Of a stretch of DNA of 5,403 nucleotides, positions 1 to 5,403 are shown piece after piece. The notes below the pieces were generated by a model. It was given only the letters and a program-made list of their open reading frames with translations, had not been told where the DNA came from and ran no database searches. This DNA is from a virus (lineage: Duplodnaviria; Heunggongvirae; Uroviricota; Caudoviricetes): IMG/VR virus record IMGVR_UViG_2548876959_000002. The stretch is one strand, 5' to 3'. The first letter of the stretch is position 1; each line of letters starts with the position of its first letter. The translations under genes were made by a program, and so were the position numbers.

Positions 1-59
1 GACTATCACTTATTTAAGTGATACTGGTTGTCTGGAGATTCAGGGGGCCAGTCTAATTC

Positions 60-662
60 TTGGTTAACATGGATAGTATTAAGGGGTCTGGTGCATATTT
101 CCCTATTATCGCTGGCTATAGTAACTTAGGTGATGTTGGTTATCGTCAGTCCTTCGAGTTTGGTTGGACGGGTAGCGGTTCGACTCACGGTTGGCGTACT
201 GGTATTATCCGTATGCGTGGCGATAACGCCAACGGGCAGCAAGCACGCTGGGAATTTACTATGGATGGTGACTTTACCGCAGGTCGTAACGGTAGCTTTA
301 ACGATGTTTACATTCGCTCTGACTCCCGTTTGAAGATTAACAAGGAAGAATTACAGGACGGCGCATTAGAGAAAGTAAACTCCCTGAAAGTCTACACCTA
401 CGATAAAGTTAAATCTCTTTCAGATGACACAGTGATTAAACGCGAAGTAGGTATTATTGCTCAGGATCTGGAAGAAGTGTTGCCGGAAGCAGTAGGTATT
501 CAATCCACCGAAGATCCAGAACAACCGGAAGCAATTAAGACTATTTCTAACTCTGCTGTTAATGCCTTGATTATTAAAGCTATTCAGGAAATGGACGCCA
601 AATATCAAGCTAAGATTGAAGCATTGACTAAAGAGATTGCCGAACTCAAAGCAACTAAATAA
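60..662 (+). CDS. Short fibre-like protein with C-terminal S74-type intramolecular chaperone / autoproteolysis domain
   Basis: Open frame 60-662 with TTG at 60 and first ATG at 69; the true start is uncertain. The C-terminal half carries the S74 hallmark known from endosialidase and tail-fibre chaperone domains: YIRSDSRLKINKEEL (Ser-Asp scissile pair at nt 318-323, Lys five residues on at nt 333-335) followed by GIIAQDLEEVLPEAV. The N-terminal ~87 aa are Gly/Trp/Tyr-rich and beta-like. The same frame has a TAA at 54-56, so this protein cannot extend upstream in frame. Confidence refers to the gene being real; function is by motif recall only. Confidence 0.7.
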   Translation: MVNMDSIKGSGAYFPIIAGYSNLGDVGYRQSFEFGWTGSGSTHGWRTGIIRMRGDNANGQQARWEFTMDGDFTAGRNGSFNDVYIRSDSRLKINKEELQDGALEKVNSLKVYTYDKVKSLSDDTVIKREVGIIAQDLEEVLPEAVGIQSTEDPEQPEAIKTISNSAVNALIIKAIQEMDAKYQAKIEALTKEIAELKATK

Positions 663-718: not shown

Positions 719-1189
719 ATGTCTCAATTTAATGATATTTTTACTGGTGGTCTGGTAAGTCTGTTCTATCACGCTGATACCACTAACACCGCTCTCGATC
801 ACTCCGGTTACGAAGAAATTAAAGAGTGTGCTGGTTTTCCTGAAACTGGTATCGAGCGCGGTACTGTAGAAGTTAAATCCTTCTCTTCTCAGTATAACCG
901 TAAGCTGGTAGGGAAACTGAACGTTCCTGATCTGACTCTGACCGTTAACTACATCCCAGGCGATGCGGTGCACGAGAAGCTCATTAAAGCTGCCGAAGAC
1001 GGTACTCGAATTCAGATTAAGATTGAATACTATGTTGATGCAGCAAAACAGACTGGTATTCGCACCGCTTTCAACGGCTTTATTTCTAAAGTTGCTATGA
1101 ACGGTGGCGATGAAGAAGTTGTAACCAAAGAGTTTACCTTCGCGGTGGACGGAAAGCCGATCAAACAGGAAATCTTCACTGCCGGATGA
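719..1189 (+). CDS. Major tail tube protein (lambda gpV tube-domain-like, no Ig-like C-terminal domain)
   Basis: ATG at 719 preceded by SD AAGGGG with a 7-nt spacer; 156 aa ending in TGA at 1187-1189. Segments LTLTVNYIPGD / GTRIQIKIEY / FNGFISKVAMNGGDEEVVTKEFTFAVDGKP align by eye with my recollection of lambda gpV (FTLAWMPGEQ / GDTRAYKIRF / [30 protein letters not shown]). Position immediately upstream of the chaperone and tape-measure genes fits. Similarity is judged from memory, not from a search. Confidence 0.8.
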   Translation: MSQFNDIFTGGLVSLFYHADTTNTALDHSGYEEIKECAGFPETGIERGTVEVKSFSSQYNRKLVGKLNVPDLTLTVNYIPGDAVHEKLIKAAEDGTRIQIKIEYYVDAAKQTGIRTAFNGFISKVAMNGGDEEVVTKEFTFAVDGKPIKQEIFTAG

Positions 1190-1315
1190 ACTAACGAAGA
1201 ACTTCCTTTAATAGAACCGGAACCACTACCGGAACATGAAGCGGTGGTGATTCCAGAAGTAGAAGAAGTTACGGCGAAAGCCACAGCAAAACGAGGCCGC
1301 AAGGCTAAGAATTAA
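1190..1315 (+). other. In-frame 41-codon open extension after the UGA stop of the tube gene (candidate readthrough extension)
   Basis: From 1190 to 1312 the tube-gene frame has 41 sense codons and then TAA at 1313-1315. They translate to TNEELPLIEPEPLPEHEAVVIPEVEEVTAKATAKRGRKAKN. There is no in-frame ATG; the only ATG in the region (1236) opens a 4-codon ORF. The terminator hairpin follows this second stop, not the first. Confidence 0.3.
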
Positions 1316-2603: not shown

Positions 2604-5033
2604 ATGACAAAACATATAGTAACAATAGAAGGGGATAATAAAGGTCTAAGGAGAAGTACCAATGAAGCCGCCGACCTTCTCGATAGTTTGTCTGAAAAGG
2701 CAAGTAATATTGATTTTGGTGGTGGCTTATCTGGTCTGACTGGATCTCTTCGTGGGATCGCTGGCTCTGCTGGTTTGGCTGCTGGTGGTATCGGCTTAGT
2801 TGCGACCGCAGTGGTTGCAGCCGCTAAAGCTGGCGCGGAATACGTTAAACAATATTCAGAAGTATCTAAGGCGACCGGACTCTCGATTGAATCCCTTCAA
2901 AGACTGGAAAAGGAATTTTCTGGTACTGGCCTAACAGTTGAAAAATTCGGTGATATCAACAAAGACACCTTAGATAAGATGGGTGATGCATGGGCTAACG
3001 GTGGTGGTATTGCTGATGACTTAGAATCGGTTGGTCTTAAGTTAGAAAACTATGCTCACTTCATGACAGATCCGCAAGGTGGTATGAAAGCGGCGATCCA
3101 AGTGTTCTATGACATGAAGAAAGCCGGAAAATCAATGGCTGAAATCAAGTTCATGATGGAATCTTTAGCCAGTGATTCAAGCCATATGACCAGCCAGCTT
3201 GAGAAATATAATAGTGCTCAAGAGGCGATGATCGCTATTCAGAATCAATCTGTTAACGTCACCGAAGAAAACGCTAAAAAATATGATAAATTTTCTCAGA
3301 ATATTAATAAGCTGGAAAATAACCTGAAAGGCGCAGCCATGACCATTACTGGTCCTTTGGTTGATAGCTTAAACTGGTTATTTGAATGGTTTAATATTGA
3401 TTGGGAAAAGAGTTCTCTATTCAGGGCATTAGACCGTCTGAATAAAGAAGGTAAGACCGCAACTGGTGGTATTCTTAACACCAACCATAAAGACGCTCAA
3501 AAGATTATTGACAAGTACAATAAAGAAAAGCGTTGGAATAATCTAGCAGATTGGGAAAAGGCCGCGATCCGTGGTGCTGGTGTCGATCCTCGTACTGCTG
3601 GCTTTGATGTAGAAGGATTTAAGAAACGTTTTGGTGGGTCTTATAAGAAAAATGGTGCTCTGATTGTCGTAGATGCTGGTGAACATCTGACACGCAAGGC
3701 AGATCCTAACACTGATTTAACTCTACCAAATAAACCAGTAAGACCAGAATCATTGGGTAAATCTGGCAACGAGAAGAAAGCCGAGGAAGAAGCACGCAAG
3801 AAAGCGGAAGAGGCAGCTAAAAAGGCTAAGGAAGCCGCAGAAAAAGCACAGAAAGAACGTGAGGATGCAATCAAGCGTCTGAATGCACTTGATGTTAAAT
3901 TGCAAGGGCAAGTTGCAGCGTCTATTGCTTCTCAAAACAAGCAGTTAGAAGCCAGCTTGAAAGATTTGGATACTGCTTTAGATCTGGGCTTAATCTCTCA
4001 GCAAGACGCAGCCGCGAAACGCCAATCCTTAATCGATCAGAATACTGAAAACGTATACAAGATGATTTTAGGTGCTGATCCGGTTGATGCTCTGAATGCT
4101 TTAACACAATTGCAACAAATCAGGGATAATGAGTTAGAAAGCCATAAACGGTTACTTGATGGTAAGGCTATCTCCTACGAAGAATATATGCGTCGTGTGA
4201 ATGATACCGAACAAAGTTATTCGCAGATTGAAGATTCTTTGCATGGAATGGATGGTTTTAAAACCAATCAGTTGACCAATAGCTTAGACTATCAGGACTC
4301 AAATAATCCGTTTGCTAAATTTAATGCAATCGATAAAGAGAAATCGGAAGCCGAACAAGATTATAAAACCGATAAACTCAAGATTGATGGGATCACCGAT
4401 CCGGCTAAACGGATGGAAGAATTAGAAAAACTCAATGAAAACCATCAAAAACGAATGGCTGCAATTGAGAAGAAATATGCTGATGCTCGCCAGTCAATAG
4501 CCGATGATATGTACGGCGGTTTTGCTGCTGCAATGACTCTCTTCGGGCAGGAAAACACTAAAGCTATGCAGATGGCTTTCAATGCTCATAAAGCATTCTC
4601 TATCGGACAAGCGACGGTGAACATGTGGACGGCTGCTACCGATGCATGGAACGATCCGACCAACGTAACCACAGGTCAAAAAATCGCTGCTGCTGCATTG
4701 GCTGTTTCTCAGAACATGGGGAACATCGCAAACATCAAGTCTACTAACGTTAGCGGTATGGCTCATGATGGTATCGATAATATCCCTCGTGAGGGTACAT
4801 GGTTGCTTGATAAGGGTGAACGAGTAGTTGATCAGCGTACTAACGGTGATTTGAAAGACTTCCTTGCTGCTCAAAAATCAGGCGGTGGCAACTCTCAGCC
4901 GATTGAAGTTAACGCACCTTTGAACATTAACGGCAACGTTAATAGCTCAGACAAGATGGTCATGGATGCTATCAAACGTCACGCTAAGTTAGTTGCTCAG
5001 GCGGTAGAAGACGCACAACGCCGTAAGATGTAA
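2604..5033 (+). CDS. Tail tape measure protein
   Basis: 809-aa ORF with SD AAGGGG and a 7-nt spacer. It has an N-terminal Gly/Ala-rich hydrophobic segment (aa 39-78), a long charged alpha-helical segment (EKKAEEEARKKAEEAAKKAKEAAEKAQKERE), and a C-terminal region with the motif GMAHDGIDNIPREGTWLLDKGERVV, which resembles the conserved C-terminal motif I recall from lambda-family tape measure proteins. Size, composition and position after the G/T pair all fit. Confidence 0.93.
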   Translation: MTKHIVTIEGDNKGLRRSTNEAADLLDSLSEKASNIDFGGGLSGLTGSLRGIAGSAGLAAGGIGLVATAVVAAAKAGAEYVKQYSEVSKATGLSIESLQRLEKEFSGTGLTVEKFGDINKDTLDKMGDAWANGGGIADDLESVGLKLENYAHFMTDPQGGMKAAIQVFYDMKKAGKSMAEIKFMMESLASDSSHMTSQLEKYNSAQEAMIAIQNQSVNVTEENAKKYDKFSQNINKLENNLKGAAMTITGPLVDSLNWLFEWFNIDWEKSSLFRALDRLNKEGKTATGGILNTNHKDAQKIIDKYNKEKRWNNLADWEKAAIRGAGVDPRTAGFDVEGFKKRFGGSYKKNGALIVVDAGEHLTRKADPNTDLTLPNKPVRPESLGKSGNEKKAEEEARKKAEEAAKKAKEAAEKAQKEREDAIKRLNALDVKLQGQVAASIASQNKQLEASLKDLDTALDLGLISQQDAAAKRQSLIDQNTENVYKMILGADPVDALNALTQLQQIRDNELESHKRLLDGKAISYEEYMRRVNDTEQSYSQIEDSLHGMDGFKTNQLTNSLDYQDSNNPFAKFNAIDKEKSEAEQDYKTDKLKIDGITDPAKRMEELEKLNENHQKRMAAIEKKYADARQSIADDMYGGFAAAMTLFGQENTKAMQMAFNAHKAFSIGQATVNMWTAATDAWNDPTNVTTGQKIAAAALAVSQNMGNIANIKSTNVSGMAHDGIDNIPREGTWLLDKGERVVDQRTNGDLKDFLAAQKSGGGNSQPIEVNAPLNINGNVNSSDKMVMDAIKRHAKLVAQAVEDAQRRKM

Positions 5034-5037
5034 TTAA

Positions 5038-5083
5038 AAGCCCCCATAGTCATAAATAATCATAAAACTATGGGGGCTTTTCT
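5038..5083 (+). terminator. Long hairpin with U-rich tail between the tape measure gene and the next gene (terminator or attenuator candidate)
   Basis: AAGCCCCCATAGT (5038-5050) pairs perfectly with ACTATGGGGGCTT (5067-5079), 13 bp, around the 16-nt A/T-rich loop CATAAATAATCATAAA. It is followed by TTTTCT and then the ATG at 5084. The loop is large for a classical intrinsic terminator. Confidence 0.5.
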
Positions 5084-5371
5084 ATGTTCAAATCCAAGAA
5101 TATTAAAATCACAGATTTTACTCTTAAATCAAAACAGCCTTTCTTCAAGGCGCAATCTATCTCCGGTAAATTTCAACGTCGCTTTACTGGCATTCATTTT
5201 TACGAAGCAGAATTTACCGCGAATTACATGGCTCAGGATATTAACGAAGTAAAAGAATTTGTAGCACGTCACCTTTTTGGTCGTCCTTTTAGTGTGCCAC
5301 TGTCTTACTTTTCAAAATATACAGGTGATGTACGCCAGATGGTTACGGCGGTAATGACTCCAACTTATTGA
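5084..5371 (+). CDS. Small minor tail protein (gpM-like by position and size)
   Basis: 95-aa ORF immediately after the tape measure gene, ending in TGA at 5369-5371. Size and position match lambda gpM-type minor tail proteins; my sequence recollection is too weak to assert homology. The only SD-like sequence (GGGGG, 5072-5076) lies within the 3' arm of the upstream hairpin. Confidence 0.65.
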   Translation: MFKSKNIKITDFTLKSKQPFFKAQSISGKFQRRFTGIHFYEAEFTANYMAQDINEVKEFVARHLFGRPFSVPLSYFSKYTGDVRQMVTAVMTPTY

Positions 5372-5403
5372 TAGTGTTTTATGTTCAGATAATGCCCGAT
5401 GAC

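Follow-up and report, generated by a model that had tools for sequence, protein, structure and literature searches.

A conserved hairpin with a promoter-like loop motif over the ribosome-binding site of the distal tail gene in siphovirus-type prophages: a possible T4-like RNA insulator

In a tail module shared by prophages of Escherichia coli, the gene for the tape measure protein (TMP) and the gene for the distal tail protein (Dit) are separated by little more than a perfect hairpin, and the ribosome-binding site of the second gene lies inside this structure. The locus raises the question of what such a hairpin does and on which RNA it acts. In a preliminary description, it had been seen as a terminator or RNA-stability element for the upstream transcript and as a translational attenuator for the downstream gene. 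Here, the junction is examined in the virus record IMGVR_UViG_2548876959_000002, of which the whole stretch of 5,403 nt is called the window, and in close and distant relatives. The features of the junction and its surroundings are listed in Table 1.

Table 1. Positions of the genes and junction elements in the window
Feature	Position	Strand	Basis
TMP gene, 809 aa	2604..5033	+	ORF list; PHROG tape-measure families, best E = 8.8e-64; labelled tape measure in intact relative
5' arm: A-tract (5036-5039), anti-SD GCCCCC (5040-5045) and AUAGU	5036..5050	+	inverted repeat; fold
Loop, 16 nt, A/U-rich, CAUAAAUAAUCAUAAA	5051..5066	+	diversity analysis
TAAATA core of the motif T-n-A-TAAATA-(A/C), 31 nt 5' of the Dit ATG; putative -10-like promoter element	5053..5058	+	conserved position, enrichment; promoter role predicted
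3' arm ACUAUGGGGGCUUUU, holds the SD	5067..5081	+	inverted repeat; no variation in 28 distinct relatives
Shine-Dalgarno (SD) G-run (GGGGG) of Dit, 7-nt spacing to AUG	5072..5076	+	duplex with 16S anti-SD -8.4 kcal/mol; P(unpaired) 0.00
U-tract UUUUCU (UUUUUCU in about half of relatives), possible terminator tail	5078..5083	+	sequence; terminator scores
Dit gene, 5' part, about 88 codons	5084..5349	+	phrog_1302, E = 1.5e-16; homology to all intact prophages stops at 5349
IS1 copy, terminal inverted repeat and inner sequence, cuts Dit	5350..5403	.	thousands of matches; IS1-like element IS1B family; GGTAATGACTCCAACTTATTGATAGTG

The TMP gene ends with a TAA codon (5031-5033), 50 nt 5' of the Dit ATG and on the same strand. 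This ATG is annotated and conserved, and in intact relatives Dit has a full length of 186 aa and is followed, in this order, by the genes for a hub-domain protein, a DUF6950 protein and a J-like tip protein. The downstream gene, previously called a minor tail gene, could thus be identified as Dit, but it is not intact here: IS1 cuts it after codon ~88 of 186, which had been missed. The tail fibre gene is cut in a similar manner by IS2, and only its 3' end (56-662) is present. The window is therefore bracketed by an IS2 end on the left (1-55) and an IS1 end on the right. Matches to prophages in E. coli all break off at 56 and at 5349, and positions 1-55 match the end beside an IS2 transposase gene in the intact prophage record. 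The window sequence is 100% identical to the intact prophage of E. coli HCP5S3_I4, which lies at about 2,456,000-2,493,500 of NZ_CM149869.1, sits in hicB and has a serine recombinase gene at its end. The exact IS2/IS1-bracketed configuration was found in 0 of 5,426 complete E. coli genomes. The window is a 5.3-kb tail-module prophage relic and, since Dit is disrupted by IS1, the hairpin serves no functional gene in the genome of the window at present.

Several further observations concern the make-up of this tail module. In another relic (L012/L050; IMGVR_UViG_2690316210_000001), the 5' arm of the hairpin is joined directly to an IS1 end (...GGCAGCATCACC/AAGCCCCCCATAGTG, the slash marking the joint) and the TMP gene is gone. 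The 3' part of the fibre gene (window 56-600) has ~90% DNA identity over 300 nt to T-even-type phages (phage Cognac) and 74-76% to others, and the gene at 1364-1870 carries the N-terminal domain of the T4 Gp38 adhesin, which together show that this siphovirus-type prophage has swapped fibre and adhesin modules with T-even phages. The chaperone-like ORF at 1913-2221 (Phage_TAC_13) and the next ORF at 2290-2592 (weak Minor-tail-protein-T match) lie 68 nt apart without overlap, and the start site of the latter is annotated differently among relatives.

The two arms of the hairpin (AAAAGCCCCCATAGT and ACTATGGGGGCTTTT) are 15 nt each, are 100% complementary and lie 16 nt apart. The stem begins 2 nt past the TMP stop codon, finishes 2 nt short of the Dit ATG, and consists of an 11-bp GC-containing core and four A-U pairs. 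The perfect 13-bp stem that had been described (5038-5050/5067-5079) is present as the core of this 15-bp repeat, and a calculation of the folding free energy, which had been proposed as a check, gave a value far below that of shuffled sequences: -25.6 kcal/mol for the 81-nt context as RNA, compared with -10.3 +/- 2.5 kcal/mol for 200 dinucleotide shuffles (z = -6.25; 0/200 as good). The 56-nt spacer by itself reached z = -6.45, the hairpin overall amounts to -24 to -26 kcal/mol, and the minus strand folds equally well (-27.6 kcal/mol). None of the Rfam 15 covariance models matched 5030-5090, with E values up to 1 considered. With 15 bp, the stem is shorter than the approximately two helical turns (20 bp or more) of an RNase III processing site.

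The G-run GGGGG in the 3' arm is, as had been noticed earlier, the sole SD candidate of Dit, and it is fully paired. G-run SDs of the type GGGG(G)TAA..ATG are the norm at most genes of this phage. The predicted P(unpaired) of the Dit SD is 0.00 for every transcript 5' end from 4950 to 5030, and the predicted cost of opening 5070-5096 is 27 kcal/mol in read-through RNA, whereas it is 6.1 kcal/mol in an RNA starting at 5064. In the intact prophage (L096), the SD is fully occluded at 3 of 26 starts, namely those of terL, Dit and the gene at 40135, each of which adjoins a TAAATA motif. The hairpins of terL and of the gene at 40135 have z-scores of -4.0 and -3.7, with one G.U pair each.

A stable hairpin at this position could be a plain intra-operon attenuator, in essence as in the preliminary description, that is, a partial Rho-independent terminator and/or a 3' stabiliser of the TMP message that damps Dit translation on the same polycistronic RNA. 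Low Dit synthesis would then come from coupling to TMP termination or from breathing of the hairpin, and the loop motif would have another role. This explanation is rather unlikely. It draws on the GC-rich stem and U4-5 tail right after a stop codon, on the presence of post-TMP hairpins in nearly all co-directional lineages, even without motif or SD occlusion, and on the stem-loop terminators that bound the late-gene clusters of SPP1 (PMC6316719). In addition, the TMP stop lies 2 nt from the stem. The coupling itself was simulated by forcing the RNA under the TMP-terminating ribosome to be unpaired. With the ribosome edge at 5039-5041, the SD stayed wholly closed. With the edge at 5043, three of the five SD G residues became free, but a residual stem of 7 bp still held 5072-5073. 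The terminating ribosome frees the SD only in part, and simple TMP-Dit coupling is therefore a weak route; translational coupling, considered as the main explanation, was demoted to a part of the attenuator reading because of this partial release. An opening cost of 27 kcal/mol is also far above what breathing or standby binding normally overcomes.

The MS2 coat/replicase coupling and the standby model (de Smit and van Duin; PMC5934652) are the known systems closest to such a coupled attenuator. The likeness lies in a stable SD helix with an upstream cistron that ends near its 5' arm, so that at the TMP-Dit junction, too, the terminating ribosome must partly melt the helix. In contrast to these systems, the helix here is far more stable (~25 kcal/mol), the distance from stop to start is 50 nt, the simulated SD release is partial, and the read-through RNA shows no obvious unstructured tail for standby binding.

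The purpose of an attenuator at this junction is also not obvious. In siphovirus tails, the TMP and the tip proteins are required in similar low copy numbers, so a stoichiometric step-down at the junction would have little evident point. The idea that the hairpin sets the stoichiometry of tail-tip components is unsupported. What stands of the attenuator is the complete occlusion of the SD, which recurs in unrelated families and at two other genes of the prophage; a constitutive attenuator, on the other hand, ignores the conserved motif in the loop, and it gives no account of the invariance of this loop or of a motif at a fixed distance where no co-directional upstream gene is present.

The hairpin also has features of a terminator, as a GC-rich stem is followed by a U-tract, UUUU(U)CUAUGUU, after a stop codon. 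Terminator strength was estimated with a d'Aubenton-Carafa type score, using an own implementation of the formula with modern energy parameters. The hairpin of the window reached d = 1.6 (U4) or 11-12.8 (U5), compared with 34.6 for the terminator of the tube gene in the window and 22-33 for those in relatives. This borderline score is mainly due to the loop, which at 16 nt exceeds the usual 3-8 nt and is also the reason why a consensus terminator scan (loop 3-8) skips the hairpin. The U-rich tail of the earlier account is present as UUUU, but it is broken after four to five U residues, continues as CUAUGUU, and its U residues pair with the upstream A-tract. A terminator role is made plausible by the stem, the U-tract and the fact that a junction terminator is the rule in relatives, and is weakened by the borderline score of the window hairpin itself. 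Compared with the Rho-independent terminators of phage late operons (e.g. SPP1, PMC6316719), the junction is alike in its GC-rich stem after a stop codon, its upstream A-tract and its downstream U-tract, and textbook terminators sit at the same junction in relatives; it is unlike them in the 16-nt loop, in the U-tract that breaks after 4-5 U, and in a 3' arm that is the ribosome-binding site of the next gene. In SPP1, the TMP and Dit genes overlap (PMC6316719). A different intercistronic hairpin of the window, in the fibre-tube gap at 670-688 (CGGGGGA-cuag-UUCCCCCG), does not resemble a terminator on the plus strand, where its score is -30.

The selective constraint on the spacer was assessed in close relatives (34 loci, representing 28 distinct sequences). 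Nucleotide diversity is 0.020 in the 50-nt spacer, compared with 0.145 and 0.082 at the third codon positions of TMP and Dit, respectively, and 6% of the spacer sites are variable, compared with 76% (TMP) and 28% (Dit) of the third positions. The spacer, loop included, is thus 4-7 times less variable than the adjoining synonymous sites. In the 28 distinct relatives, the 3' arm is without any change and the loop is fixed but for its first base. All changes in the 5' arm amount to C5044U, which is common and keeps a G.U pair, an indel in the C-run and one G5040A, while the U-tail is U4 or U5. This pattern excludes a chance origin and indicates that the whole spacer, including the loop, is under purifying selection. 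The fixation of a 16-nt loop is not explained by the hairpin alone.

The loop sequence CATAAATAA is a member of a clade-wide motif, T-n-A-TAAATA-A/C, which had been overlooked in the preliminary description. TAAATA is found 26-39 nt 5' of the Dit ATG in 25 of 30 distinct sequence families, with Dit identities down to ~35%, and this position holds both where a same-strand TMP gene lies upstream and where the upstream neighbour, an endolysin or another gene, is encoded on the other strand. In the latter arrangement, Dit needs a promoter at this place. Between the genes of the intact prophage, no hexamer ranks above TAAATA (11 copies observed, 0.96 expected). Only 5% of the structural region is intergenic in this prophage, yet this fraction holds 12 of the 19 plus-strand copies, mostly 25-46 nt before a start codon, and in 23 other loci the density of ATAAATA between genes is 24 times that in coding DNA. 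The three plus-strand copies of TAAATA in the window are all at gene junctions, where they precede the tube gene (656-661), the gene for a tail assembly chaperone (-38; 1875-1880) and Dit (-31).

The motif precedes most operons of the intact prophage, including terS, the operon of a Rha-like regulator and the leftward genes, usually beside a hairpin, and two copies stand back to back in the divergent region 5' of terL. Based on this position and distribution, the motif is predicted to be a promoter element, with an RNA start near 5064-5066. It is no sigma-70 -10 hexamer (A at the last position in 25/25 cases), and a sigma-70 promoter scan gave nothing at the TMP-Dit junction. Searches against PHROGs, Pfam and PDB sequences, which could miss remote homologues, were negative for a sigma factor, an RNA polymerase, a known activator and a gp55/gp33-like protein among those proteins of the intact prophage that were tested. 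Resemblances of the motif to H-NS, sigma-32 and other sites were set aside as possible look-alikes. If late transcription were antiterminated as in phage lambda, there would be no need for internal promoters. No genes for replication or for a repressor could be recognised in the small left ('early') part of the intact prophage, which includes a stretch of ~1.1 kb (L096 12134-13251) with no ORFs of 60 aa or more and with two minus-strand copies of the motif.

Searches with Dit profiles yielded 95 analysable loci with 48 distinct leader sequences. In a representative genome collection, a scan with the single protein found no relatives and a scan with the profile found one, probably a mis-binned MAG contig. 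Alignment of the Dit leaders with MAFFT and RNAalifold gave no consensus structure, as loops and arms are too divergent, and folds per family and an SD-anchored comparison were therefore used. The motif is preceded by a strong canonical terminator (score 22-33) in 8 of the 15 co-directional families, with 8-22 nt between the two. In several families, the motif is wrapped between an anti-SD and the SD by unrelated arms, such as CCTGAT/ATCAGG in L143, TCTCCTGAT/ATCAGGAGA in L163 and TCCTGGATT/AATCCAGGA in L120, as well as in L073 and in the palindromes of the divergent context, and all these wrapped junctions fold better than shuffled sequences (z = -2.2 to -9.0). The anti-SD lies 5' of the predicted start (~7 nt past the motif) in 18/18 hairpin families, and SD and anti-SD covary: GGGGG is found with CCCCC, GAGG with CCUC, and CAGGAG with CUCCUG. 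SD occlusion is strongest where a separate strong terminator is absent, as in the window and L073. A hairpin after the TMP stop occurs in almost every co-directional lineage, including L075 and Escherichia phage DCP80. Three related TMP-Dit junctions (L075/L109, DCP80 and L091) have neither motif nor SD occlusion.

Two cases among these relatives stand apart. In L077-L086, L110 and L116 (e.g. L082 3450-3503; Dit ~41-49% identical), the Dit-hub pair stands alone, between a divergent late operon (endolysin-terS) and a convergent gene for a large serine recombinase. The whole interval of 45-69 nt between the start codons is palindromic in this group, with up to 19 perfect pairs and z = -9, and each arm of the palindrome is the SD of one gene plus the TAAATA of the other. 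The other case is phage DCP80 (L172; PQ671644.1, 1-30000), the only sequenced 'phage' with this structural module, whose TerL and Dit are 43% identical. Its record is 141 kb in length and classed as a T4-like Gaprivervirus, while the first ~30 kb resemble a self-contained siphovirus genome, so the record may be a composite assembly. In the siphovirus part of DCP80, TTATAAATA is found directly after the T-tracts of terminators.

The loop motif could also be read at the RNA level, as the site of an endoribonuclease, either RNase E-type or phage-encoded. In such a processing switch, the cut would leave the 5' arm on the TMP message and release a Dit message with a free SD. A single-stranded, A/U-rich sequence flanked by stems, as found here, is the classic setting of an RNase E site; the cut would yield the same loop-start RNA, with an opening cost of 6 kcal/mol, as a promoter in the loop, and the motif often lies beside hairpins elsewhere in the prophage. 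The sequence itself, however, would probably not suit the preference of RNase E for U at +2 and +3, and the arms of a 15-bp helix would not readily part after a cut in the loop. The motif is moreover kept next to an upstream neighbour of opposite orientation and just behind strong terminators, settings in which there should be little RNA to process. Processing of this kind is quite improbable.

Slightly less probable still is a DNA-level element, with the RNA fold as a by-product: an operator for a dimeric regulator, a cruciform, or a boundary for recombination and module exchange. The repeat is a perfect palindrome whose minus strand folds equally well (-27.6 kcal/mol), the palindrome of the divergent context fills the whole gap between two start codons, TMP and Dit differ in diversity across the junction, and IS1 inserted right at the 5' arm in the relic L012. 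A dimeric binding site is, however, difficult to reconcile with an arm spacing that varies from 4 to 33 nt among families, and the arms are unrelated between families except for the SD in one and its complement in the other. Imperfections in the repeats are G.U pairs on the plus-strand RNA (C5044U, terL, 23734 and 40135). As weak evidence in the same direction, 14 of 18 families have a plus strand that equals or exceeds the minus strand in stability, with 23 versus 14 G.U pairs.

The reading that is preferred here, with a probability of about 0.5, is that the hairpin is an RNA insulator in the style of T4 gene e, placed around the point where the tail-tip genes begin as a transcription unit of their own. 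A promoter-like motif in the loop suggests that the hairpin acts on read-through RNA alone. In such RNA, the 5' arm, with its A-tract and anti-SD, would pair with the 3' arm, which contains the SD and the U-tract, and a terminator-like structure would form just 5' of the Dit AUG. Termination is expected to be only partly efficient, and in RNA that escapes it the ribosome-binding site of Dit would be locked, with ~27 kcal/mol needed for its opening. An RNA that begins ~6-8 nt past the loop motif, near 5064-5066, would contain the 3' arm only and would be neither terminated nor closed. In this way, Dit and the hub and tip genes that follow it would be expressed from their own start and not from upstream read-through. 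The hairpin of the window would merge two devices that are kept separate in relatives, a terminator for the TMP RNA and an anti-SD lock. The structure and its stability, the occlusion of the SD, the conservation and the recurrence of the architecture are established by the comparisons above; to these, the insulator reading adds promoter activity, the RNA start point and the extent of termination as predictions. At two positions of the intact prophage (L096 25287 and 28956), the motif lies upstream of a complete hairpin, and the logic by which a gene's own transcripts escape the hairpin fails there.

In phage T4, ribosome-binding sites are sequestered in long transcripts, while translatable RNA comes from late promoters (TATAAATA) located within the 5' strand of the structure (PMC3014915). 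The insulator reading is an analogy to this system. In the T4 genes e, soc, 49 and I-TevI, the SD is likewise buried in a helix of a long RNA that is initiated upstream. The window has an A/T-rich sequence, CATAAATA, that is similar to the T4 late promoter, and several relatives have TATAAATA itself. As in T4, the element is upstream of the SD arm, so that an RNA begun there would lack the inhibitory arm, and co-directional transcription, here of the TMP gene, reads into the regulated gene. There are also differences. The present element belongs to a temperate, siphovirus-type prophage with a serine recombinase and without a detected gp55/gp33-like factor, the conserved T in the motif flank of the window clade is at -3 and not at -2, and the motif is in the loop, whereas the T4 promoter is in the 5' strand. 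Moreover, the same hairpin here bears a terminator-type U-tract, and the RNA start is a predicted one. Literature searches did not turn up any account of the junction or the motif for siphoviruses. At the even odds given above, the element would follow the T4-type logic of a promoter inside a hairpin that sequesters a ribosome-binding site, here fused with a terminator in a clade of temperate siphoviruses.

If this reading is correct, a compact element of 46 nt would be a terminator, a translational lock and a promoter at once, and the tail-tip genes would answer to their own start signal alone, not to transcription arriving from upstream. The control logic documented in T4 would then extend to temperate siphoviruses, with a conserved promoter-like motif for a large clade of prophages. 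If it is wrong, the junction has a terminator or attenuator of the common intercistronic kind. By itself, the hairpin is nothing unusual; the clade-wide motif and the insulator design are the noteworthy part. For annotators, this implies that such hairpins should not simply be taken as terminators, and the design could be a template for synthetic insulators. A wider proposal, which is unlikely and put forward tentatively, is that T-n-A-TAAATA-(A/C) could be the promoter of a clade-wide, non-sigma-70, T4-late-like system used by temperate prophages of the siphovirus type in enterobacteria and other hosts. Its reader would be missed by current profiles or, more remotely, borrowed from co-infecting T-even phages, and the terminators and anti-SD arms around the motif would form a code that restricts genes to their own promoter.

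Another observation in the same prophages, at window 1187-1315 and L096 23541-23672, concerns the ends of the tube and capsid genes. The tail-tube gene ends with TGA (GGA TGA ACT), after which the frame stays open for 41 further codons (TNEELPLIEPEPLPEHEAVVIPEVEEVTAKATAKRGRKAKN). In the intact prophage, the gene for the major capsid protein likewise closes with TGA ACT, and its frame is open for 42 codons beyond, with the same basic tail at the end (VTAKATAKRGRKPKE). A textbook terminator follows the extension of the tube gene in the window at 1320-1350 (GCCCUGCC-uuaau-GGUGGGGC and then U6; score 34.6), where the sole Rfam match in the window, at chance level, is also located. The frame past the TGA is open in 6/6 tube and 4/4 capsid relatives, although amino acids have changed and a 3-nt indel has occurred in frame, whereas a stop is reached after 0-19 codons in the other frames. 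A canonical terminator lies immediately after each extension. Judged from these sequences, the two genes probably undergo programmed UGA read-through, which would give C-terminally tagged capsid and tube proteins.
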